64,000 nucleotides of DNA from Acidobacteriota bacterium (GTDB lineage Bacteria; Acidobacteriota; Polarisedimenticolia; SMYD01), in the NCBI GenBank assembly GCA_046757405.1, contig JBHHYE010000008.1, positions 1,944-65,943 on the forward strand, in the 5' to 3' direction. Of the stretch, positions 45,370-64,000 are shown piece after piece. How positions within the stretch are numbered: the stretch's first letter is position 1; the number at the start of each line of letters is the position of its first letter. Position numbers and translations under genes: made by a program. The notes below the pieces were generated by a model, which was given only the letters and a program-made list of their open reading frames with translations, was not told where the DNA came from and made no database searches.

Positions 45370-45530
45370 GTCGTTCCGCCTGGATCGCCATGGGGACCAT
45401 CCTGGTCCTGGTGTGGGGGGGGTTCGCGGCCGCCGTGGGGCTGGCGATTTCGTACGAACGGAGAAAACATGAAAACCGCGCCCCGCGGACCTGTCCTCCC
45501 GGGCCGCCCGTTCCAGGGAAAGGGAGCTGA
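45366..45530 (+). CDS. Small single-TM protein between the NSS transporters (candidate MetS-like small subunit)
   Basis: 54 aa: MSRSAWIAMGTILVLVWGGFAAAVGLAISYERRKHEN.... Its ATG overlaps the stop of NSS copy 1 (ATGA) and its TGA overlaps the ATG of copy 2 (TGATG). Confidence 0.45.
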   Translation: MSRSAWIAMGTILVLVWGGFAAAVGLAISYERRKHENRAPRTCPPGPPVPGKGS

Positions 45531-47447: not shown

Positions 47448-47555
47448 GACCGTCTCTGTCTCTTCATGGGACAGAGGGGCACCTGCACTGTCCTCTTCCG
47501 GGTCAGGGGAATCGACGCCCGCTCCGCCGCACGGGATACTGAGGAACGGACTCGC

Positions 47556-47571
47556 CTGGCATCCGGTTTGC
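47556..47571 (+). promoter_or_regulatory. Sigma54 (-24/-12) promoter candidate upstream of minor-pilin operon
   Basis: cTGGCATccggtTTGCt matches the TGGCAC-N5-TTGCW consensus with GG and GC correctly spaced. Confidence 0.5.
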
Positions 47572-47587
47572 TCACCCTCCGGCCGGC

Positions 47588-48109: not shown

Positions 48110-48960
48110 AGCCGGACAGAACGAGACAGGCCCAGTCCGGCTCGGTGCTCCTGGAGTCCCTGGTCTCCCTCGCCCTGGGGCTGATCGTGATCGCCGTGGC
48201 CTTGCCTTTGCTCCTCTGGTCGCGCTGTGCGGCAGCCGACACGGCGGATCGCGCCGCGCGGGCCGATGGCGCGCGGCTGTCCGTGCTGCGATTGATCCGC
48301 GAATCGCGACGGGCCGGGTTCGGACTGGCGGGCGAGATGGAGGCCTTCAGGGTCGCGGAGACCGGTGACCGGGTCTCCTTGGTTTTTCTCGAAGGGGGTT
48401 TCCGTGGCGGCCTTCCCGTGTTGGAGCCCGCCCCCTCCGGGGCCCGCTCGATCGTCCTGGGCGCCCTGGGGACGCTCCGCGCCGGGGACGAGGTGGCCCT
48501 GCGGGATCGGGAGGGGCGCTTCGCCTCCGGGAGGATCGAGAGATTGACCCGGGATCCGCTCACGGTGGTTCTGGCGGCGGGTCTTCCTTTTCCGGTGTCG
48601 CCCGAGAGTGGCGCGCGCCTTTATCGCGTGTGCCGGAGGGAATGGCTTCTGGCAGGCGGCGTCTTGCGAAGGGATGGACAGCCCATCCTGGATCCTCCCG
48701 TCGGTTTCTCCCTCACCGCCGGGGCCGGCGCCCCGGACGAGGCCTTATCCTGGGTGGTCGCCAGGGGGCTTGCCGGTTCGCCGGGAAGTGTGGCCGGGCC
48801 GCTCCTGATGGCACAGCTGACGGTGGGGAGCGGCCGCCCAGGCCAAGCGGCTCCAGGATCTCCGTGCGCCGGCCATGCGCTCCGGGAAGTCCGCCTTCCG
48901 GTGGTGGTCCAGCCCCAGCATGGCTGGCCGGAGAATCTCGCTGCGAGTCCGTTGCCATGA
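48106..48960 (+). CDS. Prepilin-type minor pilin 2 (PilW-like)
   Basis: GTG start overlaps the upstream stop (GTGA). QSG|SVLLESLVSLALGLIVIAVAL has E at +5. Confidence 0.6.
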   Translation: MKPDRTRQAQSGSVLLESLVSLALGLIVIAVALPLLLWSRCAAADTADRAARADGARLSVLRLIRESRRAGFGLAGEMEAFRVAETGDRVSLVFLEGGFRGGLPVLEPAPSGARSIVLGALGTLRAGDEVALRDREGRFASGRIERLTRDPLTVVLAAGLPFPVSPESGARLYRVCRREWLLAGGVLRRDGQPILDPPVGFSLTAGAGAPDEALSWVVARGLAGSPGSVAGPLLMAQLTVGSGRPGQAAPGSPCAGHALREVRLPVVVQPQHGWPENLAASPLP

Positions 48961-50369: not shown

Positions 50370-50538
50370 GGGGGTCCAGTTCCCGCGCCGGCAGTCGGCG
50401 GAGCGGGCGTTCAGAAACTTGATTCCCTGGATCGCGAAACCCATATTGATCCCGGTCTCCGGCCGGGCAAAAACCCGCGGGTTGACCGGAAACCGGCGCC
50501 ACGGACTCGCCTGTCGGGCCGTCAGAAGGGGAAACTCC

Positions 50539-52254
50539 ATGGCTATAAAGCTGGGCTGGATGCTAGTGAATGCCAATATCATCACCGATGCCCAGCTGCA
50601 GGAGACCCTGGAATACCAGAAGAAGAACGGCGGAAAGCTCGGCTTCAACCTGGTCAAGCTGGGTTTTTGTACGGAAGAGGAGATCACCGAGTTCCTCTCC
50701 CAGCAGTACGGCGTTCCCAGCGTCAACCTGCGCCACTTCGAGACCGATGAGGAAGTTTACAAGCTGATCCCGGCGGAAGTGGCGCAGAAATATCTCATCA
50801 TGCCCCTGTCCCGGACGGGGGCCACCCTCACCATCGCCATGGTGGATCCCACCAATGTCTTCGCCATGGATGACATCAAGTTCATGACCGGTTACAACGT
50901 GGAACCGGTGGTTGCCTCCGAGATGGCGATCAAGGAAGCCATCGAGAAGTACTACGGATCCAGCCATTCTCTCGAGCTCAAGAAGGTCATGGATGAAATG
51001 GCCGCCAGCACCACCGAGGAGCTCGAGGTTCTGGACGAGGACGAGGAGCTCGATCTCAGAAGCCTCGAACAGGCTTCCGAAGAAGCCCCCGTCGTCAAGC
51101 TGGTGAATATCATCCTGACCGATTCCATCAAACGCGGCGCCTCGGACATCCACATCGAGCCGTACGAGAAGGATTTCCGCGTCCGGTTTCGTATTGACGG
51201 CGTCTTGTACGAGATCATGCACCCACCGCTGAAACTACGGGATGCCATTCTTTCGCGGCTCAAGATCATGTCCAAGCTCGACATCTCTGAGAAGCGATTG
51301 CCGCAGGATGGGCGCATCAAGATCAAGATGAAGGTGGCGGGACGGAACAAGGAGATGGACTTCCGTGTCTCGGTGCTGCCGACTCTTTATGGTGAAAAGA
51401 TCGTCCTGCGTCTCCTCGACAAGGATAACCTGGTCCTGGACATGCGCCGCCTGGGCTTCGACGACGAATCCCTGGAAAAGTTCGAGCGCGCCATCTTTCG
51501 TCCGTATGGAATGGTCCTGGTCACGGGGCCGACGGGATCGGGGAAAACGAACACGCTGTACTCGGCCATTCATACGGTGAACACTCCCGAGACCAACATC
51601 ATGACGGCCGAGGATCCGGTGGAGTTCAACCTGCACGGGGTCAACCAGGTGCAGGTCAGAGAGGCCATCGGGCTGACCTTCGCGGCCTCTCTGCGGTCTT
51701 TCTTGCGCCAGGACCCCAACATCGTTCTGGTCGGAGAGATCCGCGACTTCGAGACCGCGGAAATCGCGGTGAAGGCGGCCTTGACCGGGCACCTGGTTCT
51801 CTCCACCTTGCACACCAATGATGCTCCCTCCACCATCAACCGCCTGATGAACATGGGGATCGAGCCGTTCATGGTTTCCACCTCGGTCCATCTGATCTGC
51901 GCACAGAGGCTCGTGCGGCGGATCTGCAAGGAGTGCAAGGAGCCGTTCCGCCTGGCCCCGCAGGCGTTGATCGATATCGGCCTGGACGAGACAGAGGCGG
52001 CGAAGCTCAAGCTCTTCAAAGGGGCAGGCTGTCAGACATGCAACAACACGGGATACAAGGGCCGTGTTGGACTGTATGAAGTCATGGAAATCGGCGAGGG
52101 TCTCAGGGAGATGATTCTTTGCGGCGCGTCGTCGGTCGAGCTCAAGAAAAAGGCCATCGAGGACGGGATGATGACCTTGCGTGCCAGCGGACTTCAAAAG
52201 ATCAAGATGGGAATCACGACGGTGGAAGAGGTCATTCGGGAGACCGTCCAGTAA
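50539..52254 (+). CDS. pilB: Type IV pilus assembly ATPase PilB (GspE family)
   Basis: N-terminal GSPII domain, Walker A VTGPTGSGKTNTLYSAI, Asp/His boxes, and the tetracysteine CKECKE...CQTCNNTGYKGR. Confidence 0.9.
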   Translation: MAIKLGWMLVNANIITDAQLQETLEYQKKNGGKLGFNLVKLGFCTEEEITEFLSQQYGVPSVNLRHFETDEEVYKLIPAEVAQKYLIMPLSRTGATLTIAMVDPTNVFAMDDIKFMTGYNVEPVVASEMAIKEAIEKYYGSSHSLELKKVMDEMAASTTEELEVLDEDEELDLRSLEQASEEAPVVKLVNIILTDSIKRGASDIHIEPYEKDFRVRFRIDGVLYEIMHPPLKLRDAILSRLKIMSKLDISEKRLPQDGRIKIKMKVAGRNKEMDFRVSVLPTLYGEKIVLRLLDKDNLVLDMRRLGFDDESLEKFERAIFRPYGMVLVTGPTGSGKTNTLYSAIHTVNTPETNIMTAEDPVEFNLHGVNQVQVREAIGLTFAASLRSFLRQDPNIVLVGEIRDFETAEIAVKAALTGHLVLSTLHTNDAPSTINRLMNMGIEPFMVSTSVHLICAQRLVRRICKECKEPFRLAPQALIDIGLDETEAAKLKLFKGAGCQTCNNTGYKGRVGLYEVMEIGEGLREMILCGASSVELKKKAIEDGMMTLRASGLQKIKMGITTVEEVIRETVQ

Positions 52255-52280
52255 CCGCGCTGCCAGGAGGAAGAGCGCAG

Positions 52281-53402
52281 ATGGCAATCACATTGCACCA
52301 GCTCCTGAAGACTCTCGTGGAACAGGGTGGCACTGATTTGCATGTCACCACCAATTCCCCGCCCCAGATCCGTATCAATGGCCGTCTGGTCCCCTTGCAA
52401 CTGCCGCCCATGACGGCTTCCGAGACGAAGCAGCTCATCTATTCGGTGCTCACGGATAACCAGAAGCACCGGTTCGAGGAGAACCTGGAGCTCGACCTGT
52501 CGTTCGGGGTGAAGGGGCTCGCCCGGTTCCGTGCCAACGTTTTCCTGCAACGGGGAGCCGTGTGCGCCGCCTTCCGGACCATCCCCTGGGAAATCAAGGG
52601 GTTCAAGGAGCTCGGCCTTCCCGACATCGTCGAGAAGCTCAGCGACAGGCCGCGCGGACTGGTCCTGGTGACGGGCCCGACGGGATCGGGGAAATCCACC
52701 ACGCTGGCCGCCATGCTCGACAGGATCAACACGGAGCGCAACAGCCACATCGTCACCATCGAGGATCCAGTCGAGTTTCTTCACTCCCACAAGAAATGCA
52801 TTGTCAATCAGCGCGAGCTCAATGCCGATACGTTGTCATTCAGCAACGCCCTGCGCTCTGTTCTGCGCCAGGATCCCGATGTTGTTCTCATCGGCGAGAT
52901 GCGTGATCTTGAAACCATCGAGGCGGCGCTGAGAATTGCAGAGACCGGGCACCTGACATTCGCGACTCTGCACACCAATTCCACGGTTCAGACCATCAAC
53001 CGGATCATCGACGTCTTTCCGGCGTACCAGCAAAGCCAGGTGCGGGCCCAGCTCTCCTTTGTGCTCGAGGGGATTCTCTGCCAGACGTTGCTGCCCATGT
53101 CCACCAATGCGGGGCGGGTCATGAGCATGGAAATCATGGTTCCCAACGCCGCCATCCGGAACCTCATCCGGGAAGACAAGATCCATCAGATCTACTCCAT
53201 CATGCAGACGGGGCAGGCCAAATTCGGTATGCAAACTTTCAACCAGTCGCTGGCCTCCTTGTTCCTCAAGAAGAAGATCACTCTGGAGGTCGCGCGCAGC
53301 GCGTCGTCCAAGCCCGAAGAACTCGACGACATGATCAGCCGGGGCTCCGGGCTTATCTATGAGACCCGGCCCAATGCCGCGGCCCGCAGGGCCCGGCGGT
53401 AG
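52281..53402 (+). CDS. pilT: Twitching-motility retraction ATPase PilT
   Basis: Walker A VTGPTGSGKSTT, the PilT-specific AIRNLIRE motif, ~370 aa. It lacks the long N-terminal extension of PilB. Confidence 0.9.
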   Translation: MAITLHQLLKTLVEQGGTDLHVTTNSPPQIRINGRLVPLQLPPMTASETKQLIYSVLTDNQKHRFEENLELDLSFGVKGLARFRANVFLQRGAVCAAFRTIPWEIKGFKELGLPDIVEKLSDRPRGLVLVTGPTGSGKSTTLAAMLDRINTERNSHIVTIEDPVEFLHSHKKCIVNQRELNADTLSFSNALRSVLRQDPDVVLIGEMRDLETIEAALRIAETGHLTFATLHTNSTVQTINRIIDVFPAYQQSQVRAQLSFVLEGILCQTLLPMSTNAGRVMSMEIMVPNAAIRNLIREDKIHQIYSIMQTGQAKFGMQTFNQSLASLFLKKKITLEVARSASSKPEELDDMISRGSGLIYETRPNAAARRARR

Positions 53403-53435: not shown

Positions 53436-54638
53436 ATGCCGACCTATTCATGGAAAGGGCGCAACCCCGCAGGTGTCATGCAGGAAGGCGTCCTGTCCGC
53501 GGACAGCAAGGAAGCGCTGGTGGGCATGCTGCGCAAGCAGCAAATCCTGGTCACGGCCGTGACCGAGAAGGGGAAGGAATTCGCCCTGCCCAAGTTCGGG
53601 GGCGGAGTCAAGCAAAAAGAGATCGCCATCTTCACCCGGCAGTTCAGTGTCATGATCGATGCAGGTTTGCCACTGGTCCAGTGCTTGGAAATCCTGGCTG
53701 GACAGCAGGTCAACCGGGTCTTCAAGAAGGTTCTGGTCAATGTCCGGCAGGATGTGGAAGCCGGGGCTACCTTGGCCGATTCCCTACGGAAACATCCGAA
53801 AGTCTTCAACGCTCTGTACTCCAACATGGTGGCCGCCGGCGAGACCGGCGGTATTCTTGACACGATCCTGCAGCGCCTTTCCACCTACATTGAGAAGATT
53901 GTCAAGCTGCGCGGCGCGGTGCGCTCAGCCTCCGTCTATCCGGTCGCCGTGATTACCATCGCCGTGGGGGTGGTGACGATCATTCTGTGGAGAGTCATCC
54001 CGACTTTCGCGACTCTCTTCGAGGGGCTAGGCGCCCAGCTGCCGCTGCCGACGCGGATCACCATCGCCATTTCCGAGTTCCTGGGACGATGGATGCCGGT
54101 GCTGGTTCTCATGGTCGGCCTGCTCATTTTCGCGATCTTCCGTTACCACAAGACCCATTCGGGCAGGCGGTGGATCGACCGCTTGGTCCTCAAGATACCC
54201 GTGCTCGGCTCCCTGTTGCGAAAGATCGCCGTGGCGCGATTTTGCCGGACTCTCGGGACGTTGATCTCATCGGGTGTTCCGATCCTCGAGGGGCTGGAAG
54301 TCACGGCCAAGACGGCCGGCAACTCGATCGTCGAGGATGCCATCATGGCGACCCGGAAGAGCGTGGAGGAGGGGAAGAATCTGGCGGTGCCCCTGGGAGA
54401 CACCAAGGTCTTCCCTTCCATGGTCGTGCAGATGATCGCCGTGGGCGAACAGACGGGCGCCATGGACGCCATGCTGGCCAAGATCGCGGACTTTTACGAG
54501 GACGAAGTGGACGAGGCAGTGGCCAATCTTCTTGCCCTGATGGAACCGGTGATGATAGTCTTCCTGGGGACGATCATCGGCGGCATCGTGATTTCCATGT
54601 ATATGCCGCTGTTCTCGCTGATCAACAAGATCGGGTGA
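53436..54638 (+). CDS. pilC: Type IV pilus inner-membrane platform protein PilC (GspF family)
   Basis: Two GspF repeats (FTRQFSVMIDAGLPLVQCLEIL... and ...FCRTLGTLISSGVPILEGLEV), ~400 aa. Confidence 0.9.
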   Translation: MPTYSWKGRNPAGVMQEGVLSADSKEALVGMLRKQQILVTAVTEKGKEFALPKFGGGVKQKEIAIFTRQFSVMIDAGLPLVQCLEILAGQQVNRVFKKVLVNVRQDVEAGATLADSLRKHPKVFNALYSNMVAAGETGGILDTILQRLSTYIEKIVKLRGAVRSASVYPVAVITIAVGVVTIILWRVIPTFATLFEGLGAQLPLPTRITIAISEFLGRWMPVLVLMVGLLIFAIFRYHKTHSGRRWIDRLVLKIPVLGSLLRKIAVARFCRTLGTLISSGVPILEGLEVTAKTAGNSIVEDAIMATRKSVEEGKNLAVPLGDTKVFPSMVVQMIAVGEQTGAMDAMLAKIADFYEDEVDEAVANLLALMEPVMIVFLGTIIGGIVISMYMPLFSLINKIG

Positions 54639-54751: not shown

Positions 54752-56446
54752 ATGACAGACACCCTCTACAAAATCCGGCTCTTGATGGTGGTCCGGGTGG
54801 TGGCGGTGACGGCCCTGCTCGTGGTGGCCTTCCTGGTAGAGTTATGGTTCCAGCCGGCACGCTCGCTTCGCCCTCTTTATATTCTCACCGCGGCCACTTA
54901 CTCCCTCACCATCATCTATGGATTGCTCTATGCGACTCTCCGCGAGCAGCAGGTCTTCATCCATTTACAGCTGATCGGCGACATCCTGGCCAGTTCGGCT
55001 TTTGTCTACATAACGGGCGGGACGACCAGCCCTTTTTCATTTCTCTATGTTCCGGTCATTCTCGCCGCGGGCATGCTGCTCTACCAGCGGGGCGCGTACA
55101 CCTTCGCCTGTCTCTCCTCCCTGGCCTACGGAACCCTGGTTGTGGCCATCTTGACGGGAGTGCTCCCGGTGTATCCCCCCGGGTCGATGCAGATCTCCGC
55201 AGCGGAGTTCAAGCGCGCCAGTTTTGCACTTATGGTCCACTTCCTGGGGTTCGGACTGGTGGCCATCCTGGCCTCGGCCCTGTCGGAAAGTCTCCGTCGG
55301 ACCGGCGAGGAGCTGGGAACCACCCGCGAGAATCTGGAAGACCTGCAGGTGTTCAATGCCCTGATCATTGATTCGGTGAATTCGGGCCTGATCACCGCCG
55401 ATCCGGCCGGCCGGATTACCTTCCTGAACCGCGCCGCCCGGGAAATAACGGGGCTCATGGAATCATTCGCCCGGGAGCGATCCATTCAGGATCTTTTTGA
55501 TTTGCCGGATGATTTCATCGAACGCCTCAACCGATGCCTGGCGCGGGCCCGCCGTTTTCGATTCGAGGTGCGCTACCAGGTAGCGGCGGGCGTCAACCGG
55601 ATCCTTGGATTCACCGCGGGACTGCTTCGCGACAAGGAGCGCATGCCACTGGGCTATATCTTCACCTTCCAGGATCTCACGGAGATCAAGGCTCTGGAAA
55701 AAGAAGTGCTGGTACGTGAGAGAATGGCAGCCGTGGGAGAGATGGCGGCCGGGATGGCCCATGAGCTGCGGAATCCACTGGCATCCATGAGTGGTTCGGT
55801 ACAAGTTCTCGGAACCGGTATTCCCACGGAGCGGCGCGACCAGATGGAGCTCCTGGAAATCATCCAGAGGGAGTCCCTGCGCCTTGACCAGGTGTTGAAA
55901 GATTTTCTTTCCTTCGCCCGGCCGCGGCCTTTCAATCCAGAATTGACCGATCTGGTCGGTCTCCTGACCGATCTTGTCCGCTTGCTCAAGAATTCTCCAG
56001 GATTGCTTCCCGCCCACCAGGTCGTGACCACCTTTGCATGCCAGTCGCTTCCCTGTCACGTGGATGTCGATCGCATCAAACAGGTTTTCTGGAACCTTGC
56101 CAGTAATGCTCTGCGGGCCATGCCCGCGGGCGGACGCCTGGAGATCTCCGCCGGCCCCGCCCGGGATGGCATGGTGGCCTTCTCGTTCACGGACACGGGC
56201 CACGGGATGACCGCCGAAGAGATGAGGAATTTTTTCAGGCCGTTCCGCTCCCGGTTTGACGGGGGGACCGGGCTCGGAACCGCCATCGTCTACCGTATTG
56301 TGCAGGAGCACAACGGACGCACGACCGTTGACTCGGAACCGGGGCGCGGCACCAAGGTCGTGGTGTCGATCCCGGCGCAGCCCGTAGGGACGACCGATTA
56401 TCGTGAGGAGAATCGATGGGAGCAATTGGTCGAGCACGTGTCCTGA
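54752..56446 (+). CDS. pilS: Sensor histidine kinase PilS-like (polytopic N-terminus, PAS, HisKA, HATPase_c)
   Basis: Six N-terminal TM helices, then the H-box MAAGMAHELRNPL and N/G boxes (GGRLEISAG..., GTGLGTAIV). It is adjacent and co-oriented with pilR. Confidence 0.8.
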   Translation: MTDTLYKIRLLMVVRVVAVTALLVVAFLVELWFQPARSLRPLYILTAATYSLTIIYGLLYATLREQQVFIHLQLIGDILASSAFVYITGGTTSPFSFLYVPVILAAGMLLYQRGAYTFACLSSLAYGTLVVAILTGVLPVYPPGSMQISAAEFKRASFALMVHFLGFGLVAILASALSESLRRTGEELGTTRENLEDLQVFNALIIDSVNSGLITADPAGRITFLNRAAREITGLMESFARERSIQDLFDLPDDFIERLNRCLARARRFRFEVRYQVAAGVNRILGFTAGLLRDKERMPLGYIFTFQDLTEIKALEKEVLVRERMAAVGEMAAGMAHELRNPLASMSGSVQVLGTGIPTERRDQMELLEIIQRESLRLDQVLKDFLSFARPRPFNPELTDLVGLLTDLVRLLKNSPGLLPAHQVVTTFACQSLPCHVDVDRIKQVFWNLASNALRAMPAGGRLEISAGPARDGMVAFSFTDTGHGMTAEEMRNFFRPFRSRFDGGTGLGTAIVYRIVQEHNGRTTVDSEPGRGTKVVVSIPAQPVGTTDYREENRWEQLVEHVS

Positions 56447-57876
56447 TCGTCGACGACGAGAAGTCGATGCGGGAATTGCTGGCGATTGCCCTGGAGCCTG
56501 ACCAGCTCGAGGTGAAGGCGGTTGCCTCGGTGGCCGATGCCCGGAGGGCGATGCAGGAAAGTCCTTTTGACCTGGTGGTGTCTGACATCGCCATGCCCGG
56601 AGAAAGCGGCATGGAGCTCCTGGCCGAGCTCCGCCGGTCCAGCCCCCAGCTCCCTGTCATTCTCATCACCGCCTACGCATCCATGGAGTCGGCGAAACGC
56701 GCTTTTTCATTGGGTGTTTATGATTGCGTCGACAAGGGCGCGAGCTTCAACATCGAGGAATTCCGCGCGACGGTGCGCAACGCCATCCAGTCGCGCCAGG
56801 TGCTTCAAGAGAACCAGATCCTCAAGAAGCAGCTCAAGAACCGGCATGGACCCGGGACCCTGGTGGCCCGCTCCCGGAAAATGCAAGCCGTCTGCGATCT
56901 CATTGATCGGGTGGCGCCGACGCGCTCCACGCTGTTGATCACCGGCGAGAGCGGCACAGGCAAGGAAGTGGTGGCCCGGACCATTCATTATTCCGGCCCA
57001 GGGGCCGAGGCCCCCTTTGTCTCCATTAACTGCGGCGCCATGCCCTCGGAATTGCTGGAGAGCGAGCTGTTCGGCCACATGAAGGGTGCGTTCACCGGCG
57101 CCCTGGCGGCCAAGCAAGGATTGTTTCAAGCGGCCCGCGAGGGTACGGTCTTTCTGGATGAGATCGGAGAGATGCCGCCGTCAGCGCAGGTGAGACTCCT
57201 CCGGGTCTTGCAGGAACGGACCATCCGGATGGTGGGTGGGACCGAGGAGATCGAAGTCGAGGCGCGGGTGGTGGCGGCCACCAACGCAGACCTGGCCGCC
57301 AAGGTCGAGCAGGGTGCCTTCCGGGCGGACCTTTACTACCGGATCAATGTCATTCCCATTCATCTACCGCCTCTCCGTGAGCGCCTGGAAGACATCTCGG
57401 CTCTTGCCCAGCTCTTCGTCCGGAGATTCGCCCGCGAGCTCGGCCGTGAGGCGCCTGAGTTTTCGCCGGAGTCCCTGCGCGCGCTGGAAGAGTACGCCTG
57501 GCCCGGGAACGTGCGCGAGCTGGAGAATGCGATCCAGCGGGCCGTGACCCTGGCCGGTGAGGGGGCCATCACGCCGGATGTGCTGCCGGCGGCGATCACG
57601 GAAAAAGACGCCGTGGGCGCTCCACCAGGAGAAGGGCGCCTGGAGACCGTCTCGCCCACGCTGATCCCGGAAGGACAGAACCTGGACCAGTACCTGGGAA
57701 CCATCAAGGCCTCGCTCATGGAGCGGGCCCTGGAGGAGTCCAACCATGTCCAGGTGGAGGCGGCGCGGCGCCTGGGCATGTCGTTCCGGTCGTTCCGGTA
57801 CTTCGCCAAGCAGCTGGGAGTTCACGTTCATCCGGAGAGCCGTGAGCGAGAGGGCGGACGAGGGTCCAAAGGGTGA
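56416..57876 (+). CDS. pilR: Sigma54-dependent response regulator PilR (NtrC family)
   Basis: REC domain (VLIVDDE...D at the phospho-site), AAA+ sigma54-activator core (GESGTGKE, GAFRADLYYRINVIPIHLPPLRER), and a C-terminal Fis-type HTH. Confidence 0.9.
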   Translation: MGAIGRARVLIVDDEKSMRELLAIALEPDQLEVKAVASVADARRAMQESPFDLVVSDIAMPGESGMELLAELRRSSPQLPVILITAYASMESAKRAFSLGVYDCVDKGASFNIEEFRATVRNAIQSRQVLQENQILKKQLKNRHGPGTLVARSRKMQAVCDLIDRVAPTRSTLLITGESGTGKEVVARTIHYSGPGAEAPFVSINCGAMPSELLESELFGHMKGAFTGALAAKQGLFQAAREGTVFLDEIGEMPPSAQVRLLRVLQERTIRMVGGTEEIEVEARVVAATNADLAAKVEQGAFRADLYYRINVIPIHLPPLRERLEDISALAQLFVRRFARELGREAPEFSPESLRALEEYAWPGNVRELENAIQRAVTLAGEGAITPDVLPAAITEKDAVGAPPGEGRLETVSPTLIPEGQNLDQYLGTIKASLMERALEESNHVQVEAARRLGMSFRSFRYFAKQLGVHVHPESREREGGRGSKG

Positions 57877-60347
57877 CGGTCACTTCCGGCAGGGGCCGGT
57901 TCATGGCCCCGCCGATCCTGGGCGTTACCCTGGCGGCCTTCGCCGGAGCCCTGAGCGGCGGCACCCTCTATTTTCGAGACCTGATTCTTCTTCACCGTCC
58001 TGTCCGCGTGGCCATCCGCCGCCTGTGGAGAGCGGGAATCGTGCCTCTCTGGGATCCCTGGCAGGATGGTGGGCGCGTTCTCCTCGCCAACCCGAACCAC
58101 CAGGTTCTCCATCCGACGGCTCTCCTGGACCTCTTCTTCTCGGTGGACACCGCCCTTGCCGCCGCCATGGTCGTGCAGGTTTTCCTGGCCGGCTGGGGAC
58201 TGGCCCTGTTCCTCAAGGACCGGGGCGCGACCCCCGCCGCGGCCCGGATGGGAGGGATGACCTACGCGCTTTCCGGCCCCGTGCTGTCGCTGGGCAATCT
58301 TCCCAACCTGATGGGGTCGATTGCCTGGGTGCCCCTGGTGCTCTGGGCCGGCTGCCGGGCGTTCCGATCGCCGGGGCTCTGGGTCCCGCTCGCCGCGTTC
58401 CTGGCCGCGATTCCGGCCTTGAGCGGCGGCGTCGAATCTCTCGGAGTGGCCGCGCTGATCCTCGGGGCTTTGGCCCTCTGGCACCCGGACCGGTTGCGGC
58501 GGCTCGGTATCACCGCGAGCATCACCGTGGGGGGACTCATGCTGGCGGCGGTGCAGCTTCTTCCCGCCTGGGAGACCTTGCGCGACTCCGAGCGCGGGCT
58601 GGGATTCCAGCCGGACCAGATCTTTTACTGGTCCTTTTCTCCCATTCGTTTCCTGGAAGCCGCCATCCCCCGGCTCTGGGGCCTGCCCACCGACCGGGCC
58701 GCCTGGTGGGGCGAGGCGGTGTTCGACGGGGGATGGCCTCTCATCCTCTCGACGTACCTGGGGGCCGGTGTGCTGGTCCTGGCCGGGGTTGGCGGCAGCG
58801 TGGCCATCGGACGTTTCGTCGGGCGCGCCGGACGCTTCCGGCGAATGGCCGCGGCGCGGTTGCCGGACGAGATGTGGCAGTCCACGCTGGTCGCAGGATG
58901 GACCGGGACCGGTCTCATGCTGCTGGCTCTGGGACGTCACAATCCGCTCCTGACGCTCTGGGGCGGCCTGCCCAGGGCAGGGGGGGCCATTCTTCGTTAT
59001 CCGGAGCGACTGGTCCCGCTGGCTGTGCTGGCCGTTGCGGTGGCTGCCGCAGCCGGCTGGCAGGTGCTGGCGGCGGCGAGACAGGAAAAGGAGGCTCTGC
59101 CACGGAGCTGGTGGATGGCGGCCGCCACCATGGTCCTCCTGCTCGGTCTGGCCGGAGCCATGGCGCGGTGGGCCGGCCTCCATCCCGTCGGACTGTACCA
59201 GCCGGCGCTTTCGGCGCGGGCTGCGGCTGCCCTGGTCCTCCCCGTGGTCAAGGCCGTGGCAGGGCTCTGGGTGGTGGCCGTGTGTGTCTGGATGGCCGGC
59301 CGGCCGCGGCGCGAATCTCTTGCCGCGGGCCTTCTGTTCCTTGCCCTGTCGGCGGATCTCCTGGCTGCGAACGGAGCACTGAATCCCACCATGGATCCAG
59401 GGCTGATGGCGTCCGAGCCCGCGGCGGCCAGGTTCCTTGCCTCGCTGGAGAGCAGCGATCGTCCGGAGGAGAGGCCCTGTGTCGTGCGTGGTGTCGAGCC
59501 CCGTGGGCCGTGGGCCGCGGCTCCGTCCGGCGAGGCGGCCGTCTGGTCCCGCCACAGCCTGGCTCTCAGGATCCCGGAGGAGTTCGGGTTGGCGACCTCC
59601 TTGACCCGGGACGTGGACCGCTCCACCCCCCTGGGCAACGCGTATCTGCGTGTCGCCCACCGGCAAGCCACGGGTGCATCCCGGGAGCGGCTGGCGGATC
59701 GTGCCGGAGCCTCCTGGGAGCTGGGATTCGATCCCGGGCCGTCCCCGATTCCCGCGGGCGCTCCCTTCCACCAGAAGGTCCTGCCCGGGGCTCCGGCCGT
59801 GGTCCTCTGGCCGCGGCCCGACGCGGCGCCGCGGATCAGCATCGTGCCCCGCGGGATCGCCCTGGGAAGGCTTGCCGCGCCGGGAGGGCTTCAACGGCTC
59901 CTGGCCCGGCTCGGCGACCCCGGCTCCGACCCGCGGCGCGAGGTTTTTCTCTCAGGGCGCCAGTCCCGCCCCGTGGAGGGACACTGGGAGCCCGCGGCGG
60001 GACGCGCCGACCTGGTCGTGGAGACGCCGCTCCACCTCGAGATCGCCACGCAGGCGCCCGGCCCCGGGGTTCTGGTGGTCCGCGATTCACTGGCGCGCGG
60101 CTGGCAGGCGCGTCTGGACGGGCGCCGGGTCGAGGTTGTGCGCGCTGACCTGGCCTGGCGGGGAGTCGTCCTGCCGGCCGGCCTCCACCGGGTAAGCTTC
60201 GTGTACCGCCAGCCGGGCCTGGTTGCCGGGACCGCGTGCAGCGCGATGGCCCTGGCGGTTCTCCTGGGCGTGGCCGGCCGATCGGTACGCCGTCACGGGC
60301 GGTGGCAGGCAGCCCGCCAGGCCGAGAACGGCCGGAGGGCCGCTTGA
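57873..60347 (+). CDS. YfhO-family-like polytopic membrane protein (GT-C-fold glycosyltransferase candidate)
   Basis: About 13 N-terminal TM helices and a ~300-aa extracytoplasmic C-terminal domain. It ends GWQARLDGRRVEVVRADLAWRGVVLPAGLHRVSFVYRQPG plus a terminal TM helix, closely resembling the conserved YfhO C-terminus (..W.A.VDGK.V...AN.AFRGV.LPAG.H.V.F.Y.P). Confidence 0.6.
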   Translation: MTVTSGRGRFMAPPILGVTLAAFAGALSGGTLYFRDLILLHRPVRVAIRRLWRAGIVPLWDPWQDGGRVLLANPNHQVLHPTALLDLFFSVDTALAAAMVVQVFLAGWGLALFLKDRGATPAAARMGGMTYALSGPVLSLGNLPNLMGSIAWVPLVLWAGCRAFRSPGLWVPLAAFLAAIPALSGGVESLGVAALILGALALWHPDRLRRLGITASITVGGLMLAAVQLLPAWETLRDSERGLGFQPDQIFYWSFSPIRFLEAAIPRLWGLPTDRAAWWGEAVFDGGWPLILSTYLGAGVLVLAGVGGSVAIGRFVGRAGRFRRMAAARLPDEMWQSTLVAGWTGTGLMLLALGRHNPLLTLWGGLPRAGGAILRYPERLVPLAVLAVAVAAAAGWQVLAAARQEKEALPRSWWMAAATMVLLLGLAGAMARWAGLHPVGLYQPALSARAAAALVLPVVKAVAGLWVVAVCVWMAGRPRRESLAAGLLFLALSADLLAANGALNPTMDPGLMASEPAAARFLASLESSDRPEERPCVVRGVEPRGPWAAAPSGEAAVWSRHSLALRIPEEFGLATSLTRDVDRSTPLGNAYLRVAHRQATGASRERLADRAGASWELGFDPGPSPIPAGAPFHQKVLPGAPAVVLWPRPDAAPRISIVPRGIALGRLAAPGGLQRLLARLGDPGSDPRREVFLSGRQSRPVEGHWEPAAGRADLVVETPLHLEIATQAPGPGVLVVRDSLARGWQARLDGRRVEVVRADLAWRGVVLPAGLHRVSFVYRQPGLVAGTACSAMALAVLLGVAGRSVRRHGRWQAARQAENGRRAA

Positions 60348-62098
60348 GAAGGTGGGCCACGATTCTGGTTCTTGCCGCGTTAGGATGCGCCGCTCTCTCT
60401 GCGGGAAGCGGCGCCATACGCTCGTTTGACTTCGGCTGGCACCTGCGCGCCGGAGAGTCGATTCTCGAGCATCATGGGCGGCCTCCTCGGGCCGACCCCA
60501 TTGCTTATACCAGCGGATCCGCCGAGTGGATCGACCACGAGTGGCTTTTCCAGCTGATCCTGGCTCTCCTGGTCCAGGCGGGAGGTCTGAAGGGGGCGTG
60601 GCTGCTGAAACAGACTCTCATCCTGGTCGGGGTGCTGGTTCCGGCCGCCTGGCTGTTGCGGATGAATCACTCTCCCTTGGCGGTGGCCTCCTTGGGGGTT
60701 CTGGCTCTGGCGGGCGGCCGGTTCCGTTTTTCTGCGCGGCCGGAGATGGTCGCCGTCGCCTTCTTGCCCGCTCTCCTGATCGTCCTGGTGGTCGCCCACC
60801 GACGCGCACGGCGGGGAGCGCGGATGGTCCCACTCCTGGCGCTGGTCCCGATCCTGGTGCTGGGCTGGGTGAACCTGCATCTTTCCGCCTTGCTGGCAGC
60901 TCTCCTGGTTGTCGTCTTCGCCCTGGCCGTGCTCATCGAGCAACGGGGAACCGATCGGATCAGCCGGCCGTTCCTGGTGACGGCTGTTCTGGCGGGGGCC
61001 GCTCTCCTGGCCAACCCGTACGGGACCCGTCTCCTGGCGGTTCCTTTTTCCATTCATACAGCCCTCACCAGCGGGGGATTGACCAACCCCGAGTGGGGAA
61101 GTGCACTGCACAGCCGTTTCGGGCTTTTCTGGACGGTCTTGCTCGCCGCCGGCACCGGCCTCCTCCTGGCCCGCCGGGCAGGCAGGAGAATGGTCCTGCC
61201 GGTGGCGGCCTGTGCGGCGGTTCTGGCTGTCGCCGGGGGTGCTGCCGCTCGCACCCTGAGTTGCTTCTACATGGCCTTGCCGGTCTGCGCCCTCGCCGTC
61301 ACCACCGGCAAGCAGTCCGGTGCGGCACAGGAAGTGCGGGCGGGATGGCGTGGCCGGGTTTCGGCCGGGGCGGCCGTCGGTCTTCCGCTCCTGGCAGCGG
61401 GTCTCTTCATGCTCTTTCCCGGGGGAGCTCCAGGGGGAGTCGGACTGGCCCCGGGACGCTTTCCCGAGGCGATGGCGTCCACCTACCAGGAGATGGGACT
61501 GCGCGGCCCGATCTACAATCCGGTCCGTTTCGGTGGATATCTTTCCTGGGCCCTGGCGCCCCAGAAGGTGTTCATCGATGGACGCAACGAGGTCCACGGA
61601 GAGCTCCTCTCCCGCCTGGCGGCCTGCCGGATGGCGACCCGACTGGAGTGCTGGGATCGGCTCGTGGAGCGATGGGATACTCAGGCGGCGTTCGTGGAAT
61701 ATGATCCACGCCGCATTCCGGTCCGCCTGCCTGATGGACGCTTCATCTCACGCAGCGTGTCATCGGTCTACTTCAGGCGGGATTCCTGGGCGCTGGTGGA
61801 CTGGGATGACGTCGCCATGCTTCTGGTCCGGCGAGGCGGCCGGAACGCCGAGCGGATCGACGGCCAGGAGGACCGGGTACTGATGCCCGAGGATCCAGAA
61901 TATTTTTACCGGGAGCTCAGAGCGGGGCGGATCGACTGGCGGGAAGCCCAGCGAGAGGTGAGCCGGCGGCTGGCCCGGCATCCAGATTCCCGGAAGGCCC
62001 GCCTGCTCCAGGAGATCGTGCGCCGGCTGGAGGTTGAGGTGAATGAGGGGAAAAATCGTCCACCGGTGGTCCGGGTGACGGGCAGTGGCGGGGACTGA
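60344..62098 (+). CDS. Polytopic membrane protein with acidic first-loop motif (GT-C-like glycosyltransferase candidate) and ~190-aa C-terminal soluble domain
   Basis: TTG 60344 overlaps the upstream stop. TM1 is followed by a periplasmic-loop motif SAEWIDHEWLFQ (GT-C-like DxD/ExD position), then 10 or more TM helices and an Arg/Glu-rich soluble C-terminus. Confidence 0.55.
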   Translation: MRRWATILVLAALGCAALSAGSGAIRSFDFGWHLRAGESILEHHGRPPRADPIAYTSGSAEWIDHEWLFQLILALLVQAGGLKGAWLLKQTLILVGVLVPAAWLLRMNHSPLAVASLGVLALAGGRFRFSARPEMVAVAFLPALLIVLVVAHRRARRGARMVPLLALVPILVLGWVNLHLSALLAALLVVVFALAVLIEQRGTDRISRPFLVTAVLAGAALLANPYGTRLLAVPFSIHTALTSGGLTNPEWGSALHSRFGLFWTVLLAAGTGLLLARRAGRRMVLPVAACAAVLAVAGGAAARTLSCFYMALPVCALAVTTGKQSGAAQEVRAGWRGRVSAGAAVGLPLLAAGLFMLFPGGAPGGVGLAPGRFPEAMASTYQEMGLRGPIYNPVRFGGYLSWALAPQKVFIDGRNEVHGELLSRLAACRMATRLECWDRLVERWDTQAAFVEYDPRRIPVRLPDGRFISRSVSSVYFRRDSWALVDWDDVAMLLVRRGGRNAERIDGQEDRVLMPEDPEYFYRELRAGRIDWREAQREVSRRLARHPDSRKARLLQEIVRRLEVEVNEGKNRPPVVRVTGSGGD

Positions 62099-62259
62099 CA
62101 TCGAGTGTCCACAAAGCTGACAATATCTGGCAGGTCCGGGAGCCCTCGGGAGTCTCGCCTGGGAATGGGCCCAGGCAGACAAGCACTCGTAAAATGTAAG
62201 TTACTGAATACAATGTACTTATAATTCTAACCTGCTCTCCCCGGCCCGCTCGGGTCGGC

Positions 62260-62275
62260 TGGCATTCCCTTTGCG
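62260..62275 (+). promoter_or_regulatory. Sigma54 (-24/-12) promoter candidate for pilA
   Basis: cTGGCATtccctTTGCg matches TGGCAC-N5-TTGCW, ~37 nt upstream of the pilA start, with an AAGGAGG RBS at 62297-62303. An AT-rich stretch at 62190-62235 is a possible UAS/IHF region. Confidence 0.55.
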
Positions 62276-62311
62276 ACAGGGTCAAGCCAAACTCTAAAGG
62301 AGGTGACTGTG

Positions 62312-62785
62312 GTGAACAGAAAGCAAGAAGGATTCACACTGATCGAGCTGCTGATTGTCGTGGCGATTATCGGTATCATCGCCGCCATCGCCATCCCGAA
62401 CCTGCTCAATGCCATCGATCGCGGCAAGCAGAAGCGGAGCATGGCTGATCTTCGGTCCGTCGGAACAGCCGTGGAAGAGTATGCCATTGACAACTCTTTC
62501 TATCCCAACGTGGCTGCCGAGGCCAACATCGCCGGTTCCGCCGTGGAGACCTCGATCGAGCCGGTCTATATCCGCAATGCTCCGACCGAGGATGGGTGGG
62601 GCTTCAACATGCGGTATATCAGCGACACGACCGTCTACACGGTTGGTTCCCTGGCCAAGGATGGTGCGGCGGGCGGCAATCTCACCATCAACAGCACCAA
62701 CGGTCGGACCACCGACTTTGACTGCGACATCATTTTCTCCAACGGCTCCTTTGTCCAGTGGCCGGAAGGAACGCAGGCTGACTGA
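62312..62785 (+). CDS. pilA: Type IV major pilin PilA (T4a, GspG-like fold)
   Basis: A short leader precedes G|FTLIELLIVVAIIGIIAAIAIPN (E+5). GTG starts are possible at 62303, 62309 or 62312, downstream of a strong RBS. C-terminal disulfide-pair Cys (DFDCD). Confidence 0.85.
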   Translation: MNRKQEGFTLIELLIVVAIIGIIAAIAIPNLLNAIDRGKQKRSMADLRSVGTAVEEYAIDNSFYPNVAAEANIAGSAVETSIEPVYIRNAPTEDGWGFNMRYISDTTVYTVGSLAKDGAAGGNLTINSTNGRTTDFDCDIIFSNGSFVQWPEGTQAD

Positions 62786-62879: not shown

Positions 62880-63335
62880 ATGTTCGAGACCCGGGGGAAC
62901 AATCATCGTGCGGAGGGGTTCACCCTCATCGAGCTTCTGGTCGCGGTCACCATCATCGGGATCGTTGCCACCATCGCGGTGCCGGCGCTGAACACGGCCA
63001 TGGAGAAATCCCGCCAGCGCGCGACCGTCGCCAACATGCGCGCCGTGGGGAACGCGCTCCAGATCTACCAGAACGATCTGACGTCGTTCCCCCCGGGCAC
63101 GCTGGATATCAACCAGCTGGCGGTCGCCCTCCTGGGAGTCACCAAACGGCCGATCCCGGTACACGATTCATGGGGCCGGGATTTCGACTATCGTTCGGAC
63201 GGGCTGGTGGAGTATTCAGTGGAGAGCTTTGGCCGCGACGGGGTGCCTGGAGCCGACATTTCTCCCGCGCAAGCCAATAACTTTGACCTGGATATCGTCC
63301 TGAGCGACGGTATCTTCGTCGCCTCGGTCAACTGA
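62880..63335 (+). CDS. Second type IV pilin (PilA paralogue, GspG-like)
   Basis: MFETRGNNHRAEG|FTLIELLVAVTIIGIVATIAVP (E+5). It is paralogous to pilA (SMADLRSVGTAVEEY vs TVANMRAVGNALQIY). Start at ATG 62880. Confidence 0.8.
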   Translation: MFETRGNNHRAEGFTLIELLVAVTIIGIVATIAVPALNTAMEKSRQRATVANMRAVGNALQIYQNDLTSFPPGTLDINQLAVALLGVTKRPIPVHDSWGRDFDYRSDGLVEYSVESFGRDGVPGADISPAQANNFDLDIVLSDGIFVASVN

Positions 63336-63393: not shown

Positions 63394-64000
63394 CATGGTC
63401 GCCGACGCCGGAGAGAAACCTTCTCTCCTCTTTTTTCTTCTTTGCGGTTTACTGGGCACGCTCTGGGTCGCTCCGCCGGAGATTTACCCCGGGGCCGCGT
63501 TTCTCGCCGCCTTGCTGCTTCCCGCCCTGGGGGGAACGCTCCTCTGGACCGGCTGGTTGCCGGACCGCGGCCAGAGATGGTTCCTGGCGGCGCTCGTCTT
63601 GCCGCTGGCGATCTCCCACCATTTCGCCCTGGACAACGGTGGATCTCTGCACAGCATGATCCGGTTGGCCGGGGCTCTGATCCTGTTTGCGGCCGCACGG
63701 CGGGTCTCCCCGGCGGAGGCGCGTGGCTTGCTGATGCTCCTGGCGGGAGGGATGGCGGTTCTTTCCCTCCATGGTCTCTGGCAGTACCTGGTGGGCTTCG
63801 ATCGCCTTCTGGCGGACCGGGGCCTGCCGGCCGGCGTGGTGGAACGGCTGCAGACCTACCGGGTCTTCGGCCGCTCGGTTCTGCCATCGGTGTTCGCGTC
63901 CCTGCTTTTCCTGGCTCTTCCGGTCTCTGTGGGCCTTGCTTCCGCCGCCCGTGGTCTGGCCCGGCTCGCCTGGGGAATGGCCGCCCTTCTCTCCGGCGTG
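63394..64000 (+). CDS. O-antigen ligase (Wzy_C) family-like membrane protein, partial (candidate pilin O-oligosaccharyltransferase, PglL/TfpO-like)
   Basis: ATG 63394 opens a frame without stops to the window end (not in the track because it has no stop). Multiple TM helices, and RVFGRSVLPSVFASLLFLALPV resembles the Wzy_C motif R..G...NPN..A..L....P. Confidence 0.5.

Follow-up and report, generated by a model that had tools for sequence, protein, structure and literature searches.

The locus and its genes

The window, meaning the whole stretch of 64,000 nucleotides that was analysed, carries a type IV pilus operon in which a gene for a 584-residue membrane protein lies between a YfhO-like gene and pilA (Table 1). 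The NCBI annotation of the same MAG uses the same TTG start, and its product, ACE5HD_03775 (584 aa), is identical to the protein described here (100% identity over 100% of the length) and is named "hypothetical protein". The start has a GGAGG 5 nt on its 5' side and overlaps the TGA that ends the upstream 824-aa gene. In three homologous loci (L001, L004, and L005; 31-37% identity), the gene calls likewise overlap the preceding gene by 4 nt. The first-pass annotation had read the junction (cTTGAg) as translational coupling to the YfhO-like gene and had placed the gene upstream of pilA; the overlap, the NCBI start, and the homologous loci bear out the former, and the pilin domains encoded downstream bear out the latter.

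Judged from the sequence, pilS, pilR, the YfhO-like gene, and the gene of interest are one tightly packed transcription unit. The two predicted control elements ahead of pilA, TGACATCGAGTGTC and TGGCATTCCCTTTGC, are both conserved 5' of pilA in nine related loci, and the gene is predicted to belong to the pilSR transcript rather than to lie behind the sigma-54 promoter of pilA. Its upstream partner gives a weak match to Pfam YfhO (30 bits against a cut-off of 28.5, in the C-terminal 50 aa), and the match is stronger in orthologues of this partner (L004 and L005). On the other side, pilA2 is present in the closest relatives, and the polytopic ORF that leaves the window shares 47-51% identity with its counterparts in L008, L009, and L010; the L010 orthologues carry Wzy_C. 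Two Wzy_C genes also follow the pilins in L004 and L005, and sugar-biosynthesis genes occur downstream of the pilins in related loci. Genes for donor synthesis (DPM1/GtrB-like GT2 or a GtrA/ArnEF-like flippase) were not found beside the gene here or in relatives.

Table 1. Features of the pilS-pilA region (window coordinates; residue numbers refer to the 584-aa protein)
Feature	Position	Strand	Description
pilS	54752-56446	+	Pfam 6TM_PilS/PAS/HisKA/HATPase_c; overlaps pilR
pilR	56416-57876	+	Pfam Response_reg/Sigma54_activat/HTH_8; overlaps YfhO-like gene
YfhO-like gene, upstream partner	57873-60347	+	824 aa, polytopic; start overlaps pilR stop
Translational coupling element	60334-60347	+	GGAGG 60334-60338; TTG 60344-60346 overlapping TGA 60345-60347; read from sequence
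Gene of interest	60344-62098	+	584-aa membrane protein, predicted GT-C fold; ORF ends 62098
Membrane domain, aa 1-357	60344-61414	+	11 TM helices; DSSP of model, hydropathy, positive-inside counts
First periplasmic loop (predicted), aa 22-66	60407-60541	+	D29, H33, G37, D51, W62, D64, H65, E66; conservation in 210 sequences, topology
D29 codon	60428-60430	+	D-x-x-W-H-L-x-x-G; candidate canonical GT-C loop-1 Asp; 94% conserved
D51 codon	60494-60496	+	P-x-x-D-P-F-S-F-T; loop-1 acidic residue with the most uniform conservation
EWIDHEW, aa 61-67	60524-60544	+	N-terminal end of second loop-1 helix; family form W-[IV]-[DN]-[HG]-E-W
N177-L-H179	60872-60880	+	Periplasmic end of TM5; N 99%, H 98% conserved
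E250-W251	61091-61096	+	Long periplasmic loop following TM7; E 95%, W 89% conserved
R303 codon	61250-61252	+	Immediately before TM10; 99% conserved; candidate binder of lipid-carrier phosphate
C-terminal domain, aa 358-567	61415-62044	+	Alpha/beta and helical, predicted periplasmic
F-G-G-Y-L, aa 396-400	61529-61543	+	Invariant in C-terminal domain
D-G-R-N-E, aa 412-416	61577-61591	+	Invariant in C-terminal domain
pilA control region	62096-62274	+	TGACATCGAGTGTC 62096-62109, overlapping the stop of the gene of interest; sigma-54-type promoter TGGCATTCCCTTTGC 62260-62274
pilA	62303-62785	+	Type IV pilin, presumed acceptor; N_methyl and T2SSG domains
pilA2	62880-63335	+	Second pilin-like gene; N_methyl and T2SSG; ORF could begin at GTG 62814
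Polytopic ORF	63395-64000	+	Start only, runs off window; related loci have two Wzy_C (O-antigen-ligase-like) genes, of which the first is its orthologue

Predicted fold and conserved residues

Sequence libraries are silent about this protein. Against Pfam-A 2025 and NCBIfam 20.0 it gives no match at E<=0.1 and reaches no curated cut-off; PDB chains show no significant sequence similarity, the sole match at E<=10 being a capsid protein (E 5.7); and 39 homologues yield sub-threshold hits only, to PMT_2 (three members, best E 0.006) and WsfD (two members, best E 0.019). Clustering at 50% identity nevertheless leaves about 41,000 clusters in this very large family, which is spread over several phyla, among them Acidobacteriota, Sumerlaeota, and other poorly studied ones, and TPR repeats are frequent at the C-terminus of its members.

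The predicted structure is more informative. In the AF2 model (pLDDT 92.9), a polytopic N-terminal module is followed by a soluble part, aa 358-584. Some 195 residues of this part are ordered in the model, and the earlier estimate of a soluble domain of about 190 aa was therefore correct, as was the description of the protein as polytopic. TM1 (aa 2-20) leads into a loop of some 45 residues that ends at EWIDHEW, and juxtamembrane helices are found in this long first extracytoplasmic loop (aa 30-42 and 67-80) and in loop 4 (aa 227-242). All of the top 30 Foldseek matches are GT-C proteins, and the C-terminal domain alone matches domains of AglB-S2, AftA, AglB, and STT3B. A GT-C fold is thus well supported as a model prediction. 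At the level of predicted fold, the Foldseek result, the C-terminal matches, and the topology also support the earlier suggestion of a second lipid-linked-sugar transferase at this locus.

Positive-inside counts over 210 family sequences point to 11 TM helices with the N-terminus inside and the C-terminus outside, so that loop 1, and EWIDHEW with it, is predicted to face the periplasm. At least 14 polar or aromatic residues (D29, H33, D51, R132, N177, H179, N224, E250, R303, D412, R414, and D488 among them) are 90-100% conserved at an overall identity of about 30%, and in the membrane part every residue conserved at 90% or more sits either in a periplasmic loop or at the periplasmic end of a helix. 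Might the protein be a catalytically inactive GT-C-like scaffold or chaperone, serving pilin processing, pilus assembly, or the YfhO-like enzyme much as PIG-U/GAB1 serves in the GPI transamidase? This one-sided conservation of polar residues speaks against such a role, as does the fact that the best structural matches, with higher Z, are enzymes, and we consider it improbable.

Which of these residues would do the chemistry? The first-pass annotation had taken EWIDHEW for the catalytic signature position of GT-C enzymes. It does lie in loop 1 after TM1, and its conservation is more than chance in the sequences compared: W62 (93%), E66 (80%), and W67 (99%) are kept across the 210 sequences, and Acidobacteriota relatives show W-[IV]-D-H-E-W with hardly any variation. 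However, the motif sits at the distal end of the loop, against the second loop-1 helix; E61 is found in only 11% of members, the family consensus there being P, while D64 reaches 54% (N in 26%) and H65 64%. The canonical catalytic Asp of GT-C enzymes lies shortly after TM1 (PMC7801869), and by this position D29 is the better candidate. EWIDHEW is probably not the canonical motif, since D29, D51, and R303 suit the GT-C hallmarks better, but its potential ligands D64, H65, and E66 may contribute, by analogy with E84/K85 in ArnT. D29 is a candidate only, since Ser takes its place in 13 of the 36 stand-alone homologues (those away from pilus genes). D51 is Asp in 93% of the 210 sequences, in 33 of 39 pil-linked homologues (the others having three E and three gaps), and in 33 of the 36 stand-alone ones. 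An acidic pair of the DD, DE, or DxD kind (DxD/DDx/DEx) occurs nowhere in loop 1.

A further hallmark of the class is an Arg at the start of TM10 that holds the lipid carrier by its phosphate, such as R375 of PglB, R426 of AglB, and R404/R405/R459 of STT3 proteins (PMC7801869). R303 directly precedes helix 302-318, the tenth of the 11 TM helices, and may be equivalent to these residues, an equivalence drawn by position only.

This Arg, the high structural matches to STT3B, AglB, and PglB over 419-440 residues with the C-terminal domain included, and the sequons NLT, NST, and NGS in the PilA of the window would all fit an oligosaccharyltransferase (OST) of the GT66 kind, moving a preassembled glycan from undecaprenyl-diphosphate to a pilin Asn. 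This form of N-glycosylation is nonetheless very unlikely here: WWDYG, also in its wider form WWD[YWFN]G, is present in 0 of 219 family sequences, an STT3 Pfam match is lacking, orthologous pilins do not retain the sequons, and the locus already has Wzy_C-type candidates for en-bloc O-transfer.

Genomic context and the proposed acceptor

A Polarisedimenticolia subgroup keeps the gene order pilS-pilR-YfhO-like-gene of interest-pilA(-pilA2)-Wzy_C x2 even at 31% identity, and the longer order pilB-pilT-pilC-pilS-pilR-YfhO-like-gene of interest-pilA is found at 31-37% identity. Both flanks are covered in 54 loci. Of these, 17 pair an upstream YfhO-like gene with a downstream pilin, one (L081) has a pilin only, and 36 have neither; a YfhO-like gene without a pilin occurs in none of the 54. 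The 36 stand-alone members, two thirds of the loci, have housekeeping neighbours, so pilin specificity is not a property of the whole family. The nearest neighbour has the same genomic context for 71 of the 75 homologues compared (39 pil-linked and 36 stand-alone).

The reading that we prefer, with a probability of roughly 55%, is a periplasm-facing GT-C transferase that uses a polyprenyl-phosphate-linked sugar and, as part of a pilin glycosylation module, acts on a type IV pilin or on its glycan. [quoted passage not shown] It would be made from the pilS-pilR transcript and coupled in translation to a second, unrelated GT-C, the YfhO-like protein. Its active site would open toward the periplasm and comprise D29, H33, D51, D64-H65-E66, R128/R132, N177/H179, E250, and R303. 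If it works as solved GT-C enzymes do, the polyprenyl-phosphate-sugar would lie in a groove of the membrane domain with its phosphate bound by R303 and probably R132; the residue positioning or activating the hydroxyl of the acceptor would be a loop-1 Asp, D29 being the likeliest, and the C-terminal domain would bind the acceptor itself. The gene, its motifs and their conservation, the recurring gene order, and the resemblance of the predicted fold to GT-C enzymes are observed; topology, catalysis, the parts played by single residues, and the identity of donor and acceptor are points that we infer. Several observations count against this reading: no donor-synthesis genes were found alongside, two thirds of the related loci examined are remote from pilus genes, the gene does not follow the sigma-54 pilA promoter, D29 is often Ser in stand-alone homologues, and loop 1 has no classical acidic pair.

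The pilin, or a glycan already on it, is the likeliest acceptor because the gene is on the pilS-pilR transcript and pilA, pilA2, and two Wzy_C-type genes come straight after it; in the pilin comparison, a variable Ser/Thr/Gly-rich loop lies between KDG and DFDCD. Fold and location in a type IV pilus operon together make it most likely that the protein takes part in glycosylating the pilin.

An active GT-C could also serve another acceptor, such as exopolysaccharide, LPS or lipid, a peptidoglycan-linked glycan, or a different secreted protein, its place at pilSR then reflecting co-regulation with piliation. The 36 loci that lack a nearby pilin or YfhO-like gene, the size and multi-phylum spread of a family with frequent C-terminal TPR, which suggests a general role, transcription with the regulators and not from the pilA promoter, and the action of the structurally close AftA and ArnT on glycans or lipids all lend this some weight. 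Against it, the pil-linked subgroup holds the exact pilR-pilA position down to 31% identity, is always accompanied by a pilin in the sampled loci and by the YfhO-like partner in all but L081, and has Wzy_C-type genes after the pilins, comparable to tfpO adjoining pilA in P. aeruginosa. A non-pilin acceptor is a real possibility, though it has less to recommend it than transfer to the pilin.

A bolder and quite tentative extension of the pilin reading would make the protein a founding member of a new GT-C family without counterpart in Pfam, NCBIfam, or the PDB. Its loop-1 chemistry would rely on separate single acids (D29, D51, and D64/E66) together with His33, His65, and His179, not on a DxD-type pair. 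With the YfhO-type GT-C and two Wzy_C-type enzymes, it could form a four-enzyme periplasmic machine, encoded in the pilSR-pilA locus of Polarisedimenticolia, for assembling a complex O-glycan on type IV pilins.

The predicted structure thus offers a fold and a likely chemistry for a protein called hypothetical by every sequence library. The fold assignment covers a family whose sequence clusters number in the tens of thousands and come from poorly studied phyla; because it spans the whole family, characterising one member biochemically could lead to a curated family model and to a CAZy family. Within the pil-linked subgroup, the neighbouring pilin is a concrete acceptor candidate.

Comparison with known GT-C systems

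The protein can be set against each of the known families. For GT66 enzymes, its 11 computed TM helices compare with 13 in PglB/STT3. GT39 protein mannosyltransferases (Pmt4, 9e61; Pmt1/Pmt2, 6p2r) are set apart: the protein has no PMT or PMT_2 match at threshold, no DE pair after TM1, and no MIR domain, and its C-terminal domain resembles those of OST and AftA enzymes. ArnT (GT83), which transfers 4-amino-4-deoxy-L-arabinose to lipid A and has the signature DExRYA...GxW...YFEKP....W, differs in that none of the 219 family sequences contains DE.RY or YFEKP and the acceptor chemistry is unrelated. The only hhalign match between the family and E. coli ArnT pairs loop 1 with loop 1 (A1 profile positions 41-81 with ArnT 43-82); it is weak and non-significant (E 0.09, probability 0.6%) and aligns only G-x-W and W...W-L-F.

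AftA, the galactan 5-O-arabinofuranosyltransferase of GT85 (PDB 8if8), shares 10-14% sequence identity with the protein, and AftA_N and AftA_C have no Pfam match in it or in 39 homologues. AftA acts on cell-wall galactan in Mycobacteriales, whereas a decaprenyl-P-arabinose pathway is not evident at the present locus. Wzy_C (PF04932), the domain of PglL and TfpO, gives no match in the protein, and the Wzy_C proteins are encoded by separate genes downstream of the pilins. The YfhO and PgfM1-PgfM2 family is alike in being polytopic, of GT-C type, and active on the outer face of the membrane, and one of its members is the coupled upstream partner; yet YfhO (PF09586) has no match in the protein or in 39 homologues, and BLASTP against the YfhO-like neighbour gives a best E of 0.18.

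In function, the proposed role comes closest to that of TfpW of P. aeruginosa group IV strains, a pilin D-arabinofuranosyltransferase and, like the present protein, a polytopic GT-C encoded beside pilA. TfpW has 11 predicted TM helices, a periplasmic C-terminal domain with TPR, DDx in periplasmic loop 1, and Y-x6-P-F-x7-P in loop 4, and its gene lies downstream of pilA (bioRxiv 10.1101/2020.04.19.049825). Measured against this description, the present protein is not of TfpW type: its gene is upstream of pilA on the pilSR transcript, it lacks the loop-1 DD pair and the TPR, its C-terminal domain is AglB/AftA-like, Y-x6-PF-x7-P occurs in 0 of 219 family sequences, and genes for D-Araf biosynthesis were not seen with it. 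Pilin glycans influence pilus stability and function as well as phage and surface interactions. If the pilin reading holds, the protein would be, after TfpW, a second independent GT-C dedicated to type IV pilin glycosylation, this time in an environmental lineage.

The gene and its surroundings

The 584-aa target protein is encoded by a genuine open reading frame, as read from the sequence. Its TTG start shares bases with the TGA stop (60345-60347) that ends the 824-aa YfhO-like gene upstream, and a GGAGG (60334-60338) precedes this start by 5 nt. The NCBI annotation of the same MAG uses the identical start (584 aa, 100% identity; [quoted passage not shown]), and the 4-nt overlap is also called in homologous loci, where the target proteins are just 31-37% identical. 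The translational coupling to the YfhO-like gene proposed in the first-pass annotation is borne out, and so is the position before pilA. From pilS through pilR and the YfhO-like gene to the target, each gene overlaps the next, giving a single compact unit. The YfhO-like protein and the target are not paralogues of each other (best BLASTP E 0.18), no second copy of the target occurs elsewhere in the window, and no Rfam family was detected between 46 and 64 kb.

As for pilA, it has its own predicted sigma-54-type promoter, TGGCATTCCCTTTGC, of a form (TGGCA-N7-TTGC) that nine related loci keep ahead of pilA; TGACA-N5-TGTC elements upstream of the promoter are likewise kept in these nine. The two elements in the window, TGACATCGAGTGTC, overlapping the target's stop codon, and CTGACA...TGGCAG, are candidate PilR enhancer sites. 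Between them and the promoter there is an AT-rich patch, gtaaaatgtaagttactgaatacaatgtacttataattctaacc, in a genome of 65% GC; the patch might serve for DNA bending or as an IHF-type site.

Beyond the pilin genes, the window ends within a polytopic ORF. In the closest loci the pilins are followed by two Wzy_C genes, the first of which shares 47-51% identity with this ORF; the region past base 64000 was judged from orthologous loci. In related loci, the Wzy_C pair is succeeded by genes for sugar modification and glycosyl transfer (DegT aminotransferase, GT4, GT2/GT9 fusion, asparagine synthase).

Features of the target, the pilus locus and the rest of the window (nucleotide positions unless marked aa)
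Feature	Position	Remarks
Exopolysaccharide cluster, Wzx/Wzy type	1926-18071	40 kb from the pilus locus
Two tandem sodium:neurotransmitter symporter (SNF) family genes	43918-46939	downstream of biotin carboxyl carrier and biotin carboxylase genes; unrelated to target
GC-rich stretch, ~3 kb	47245-50369	just upstream of pilB; 71% GC (window as a whole, 65%); possibly a gene that is frameshifted or of low complexity
Two long overlapping + strand ORFs	47245-48960, 48630-50369	no Pfam match
pilB	50212-52254	annotated start of this 680-aa ORF may be over-extended
pilT ORF	52119-53402	
pilC	53436-54638	
pilS	54752-56446	
pilR	56416-57876	
YfhO-like gene	57873-60347	
Target	60344-62098	+ strand
EWIDHEW	60524-60544	aa 61-67
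First candidate PilR element	62096-62109	
Second candidate PilR element	about 62116-62132	
AT-rich patch	62180-62240	
Predicted sigma-54-type promoter	62260-62274	
pilA	62303-62785	
Second pilin gene (pilA2)	to 63335	
Polytopic ORF	63395-64000	continues past window end; orthologue of first Wzy_C gene
Terminator-like hairpin and T-run	63410-63428	inside first codons of the 63395 ORF
Target, 11 predicted TM helices	about aa 2-20, 82-106, 111-128, 134-151, 162-176, 182-199, 206-223, 257-278, 285-300, 302-318, 339-357	
Juxtamembrane helices	aa 30-42, 67-80; aa 227-242	loop 1; loop after TM7
Conserved, loop 1	D29 94%, W32 87%, H33 91%, G37 98%, P48 88%, D51 93%	210 sequences
Conserved, end of loop 1	W62 93%, E66 80%, W67 99%	210 sequences
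Conserved, membrane part	R128 85%, R132 98%, P133 96%, N177 99%, H179 98%, N224 92%, P225 100%, E250 95%, W251 89%, R303 99%	210 sequences
Conserved, soluble domain	N392, G397-G398-Y399-L400, D412-G-R414, W482, D488-D489, P515	

Predicted fold and candidate active site

Sequence libraries say little about this protein. A Pfam-A and NCBIfam scan of the target gave zero matches, 39 homologues scanned singly gave just sub-threshold PMT_2 (3 members, best E 0.006) and WsfD (2, best E 0.019), and the family profile found no relevant chain among PDB sequences. The named homologues are all called "hypothetical protein" or "tetratricopeptide repeat protein", many of the longer members carrying C-terminal TPR repeats. 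Yet the family has very many members: its profile, run against 1.84 billion cluster representatives, matched 40,942 of them at E<=1e-3 (18,059 at E<=1e-30), and Acidobacteriota, Sumerlaeota and Hydrogenedentota are among its taxa.

The predicted structure is more informative. The AlphaFold2 model (39 homologues as input; mean pLDDT 92.9, pTM 0.91) is polytopic in its N-terminal part (aa 1-357); the C-terminal remainder (aa 358-584) is soluble and ordered as far as about residue 567. Comparison with known folds, a check suggested in the first-pass annotation, returned GT-C matches: the best 30 Foldseek hits in the PDB libraries all belong to this class, with AftA first (E 1.6e-6) and STT3 matching at a TM-score of 0.54. 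Structural alignments with STT3B, AglB, DPY19, PglB and ArnT span 407-440 residues, more than the 357 of the membrane part, so that the soluble domain contributes to the match. These matches point to a GT-C_A architecture, in which a polytopic module is joined to an OST/AftA-type extracytoplasmic domain. In the model, the target is a GT-C protein at the level of fold, and very probably a GT-C enzyme.

Model helices and K+R counts averaged over 210 family sequences give a consistent topology, with the N-terminus in, 11 TM helices and the C-terminal domain out. K+R residues number 12.3 in the N-terminus and cytoplasmic loops vs 3.5 in the short periplasmic loops, where they fall at the conserved R128, R132 and R303. 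Under this topology, all of the strongly conserved polar and aromatic residues of the membrane part are predicted to face the periplasm. The earlier proposal of a second GT-C-type transferase for lipid-linked sugars gains support from predictions of fold, topology and hallmark residues.

Where is the active site? The same proposal took EWIDHEW as the catalytic signature. The motif is indeed predicted in periplasmic loop 1 rather than in the cytoplasm, by both the model helices and the K+R counts, but it lies at the far end of this loop, where the second loop-1 helix begins, and is conserved only in part: E61 occurs in 11% of 210 sequences (consensus Pro), D64 in 54% (Asn 26%) and H65 in 64%. 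In Acidobacteriota relatives D-H-E is nearly invariant. It is probably an accessory active-site element, with the canonical catalytic motif elsewhere.

Solved GT-C enzymes have a universal catalytic or acceptor-binding Asp soon after TM1 (D55 in ArnT, D77 in Pmt1, D281 in the Emb structure 7bvf; PglB 5ogl and STT3 are cited by entry alone, residue numbers being absent), a metal or phosphate ligand pair close to where the second loop-1 helix starts (E84/K85 in ArnT), and an Arg that binds the lipid phosphate just N-terminal of TM10 (R375 in PglB, R426 in AglB, R404/R405/R459 in STT3) (PMC7801869). Judged by position relative to the helices and by this literature, D29 and R303 would occupy the post-TM1 Asp and pre-TM10 Arg positions, and D51 or D64-H65-E66 would roughly correspond to the ligand pair of the ArnT E84/K85 type. 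Of 36 stand-alone homologues (those away from pilus genes), 13 have Ser in place of D29 while D51 is retained, which leaves more than one candidate for the catalytic acid. No DD, DE or DxD pair occurs anywhere in loop 1, and in this the family differs from the textbook GT-C motif. Profile-profile comparison with E. coli ArnT aligned loop 1 with loop 1 only (probability 0.6%, E 0.09), pairing G37-x-W/G46-x-W48, W62/W67 and W67-L-F/W74-L-F; the result is not significant, the ArnT relatives listed all being at least 76% identical, and is a hint only.

Genomic context and a possible role in pilin glycosylation

Related loci were searched with two peptide patterns from a narrower alignment (A2), and 86 were fetched. 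Both flanks are covered in 54: a YfhO-like gene lies upstream and a pilin downstream in 17, a pilin only in one and neither in 36, a ratio that is no census given the resulting bias towards Acidobacteriota. A YfhO-like gene without a pilin was found in none of the 54. In 71 of 75 cases, a locus and its closest neighbour by sequence have the same context. Placement between pilR and pilA is conserved in one lineage, and the target is coupled to a second GT-C gene. The locus with a pilin only (L081, 8001-9569 and flanks) runs from pilR directly to the GT-C homologue and then to pilA, so partnership with the YfhO-like protein is not obligatory. An apparent YfhO::GT-C fusion of 1114 aa (P0220, locus L087, 1039-4383) was considered as a Rosetta-stone case and rejected: the C-terminal half of the YfhO-like protein is joined to the homologue at IRSYDFGWH, with a pilin gene next, but the junction lacks the GT-C TM1 and the upstream ORF is split on the contig, which makes an artefact of assembly or frameshift the probable explanation.

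Four loci labelled Patescibacteria, Verrucomicrobiia, Dongiaceae and Binatia (L018, L019, L022 and L032) hold pilR, the YfhO-like gene, the GT-C gene and pilA; in L019 and L032, which also cover pilC, PilC is 76-78% identical to that of the window. All four are likely mis-binned Polarisedimenticolia contigs.

Stand-alone homologues are mostly from Thermoanaerobaculia and Sulfomarinibacteraceae, amid housekeeping genes (SLT transglycosylase, thioredoxin reductase, polA, deformylase, ABC transporters). In seven of these loci (L072, 4019-5245, and six more), a PIG-V-type mannosyltransferase (Mannosyl_trans2, another GT-C family) is encoded about 2 kb upstream.

What would such an enzyme act on? 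R303 and R132 would hold a polyprenyl-phosphate (or -diphosphate) carrier, the enzyme would take its sugar, and a loop-1 Asp, D29 or alternatively D51, would act on an acceptor presented by the AglB/AftA-like domain. That acceptor would most likely be PilA/PilA2 or a glycan carried by either. Common to the pilins is a surface loop, variable and rich in Ser/Thr/Gly, that lies between KDG and DFDCD; it is the obvious candidate for the glycosylation site. Against a pilin role are the target's place on a regulator transcript, a wider family that is mostly not pilus-linked, and the fact that donor-synthesis or flippase genes were not found adjacent to the target. Direction towards pilins, taken by itself, has close to an even chance at best; a GT-C enzyme directed at pilins is still the best of the alternatives, with a probability of roughly 0.55. 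N-glycosylation of the pilins, raised by NLT/NST/NGS sequons and OST-like matches, is unlikely, since WWDYG is missing and the sequons are unconserved.

Elsewhere in the window, the exopolysaccharide cluster encodes a GDSL hydrolase, a Polysacc_synt flippase, an NAD-dependent epimerase/dehydratase, a Wza-like exporter, a Wzc-like chain-length/tyrosine-kinase protein, DUF374 and GT4. It is a possible source of lipid-linked glycans.

Comparison with known systems

The result is unsurprising in kind. Still, a very large uncharacterised family gains a fold and a testable active site and, in the lineage of the window, a specific candidate substrate as well.

By the sequence tests run, the target belongs to none of the curated families. 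The WWDYG of GT66 and the DExRY and YFEKP of GT83 are missing from its family; the target itself lacks the DE pair and MIR domain of GT39, the DDx, Y-x6-PF-x7-P and TPR of TfpW, and the YfhO and Wzy_C domains. The most fitting description is a new sequence family within the known GT-C fold class, for a putative enzyme that works like TfpW, PMT or AftA. In P. aeruginosa, PilA is glycosylated by the GT-C TfpW and the Wzy_C-type TfpO, both encoded beside pilA; in the lineage of the window, GT-C and Wzy_C-type genes are both present in a single locus.
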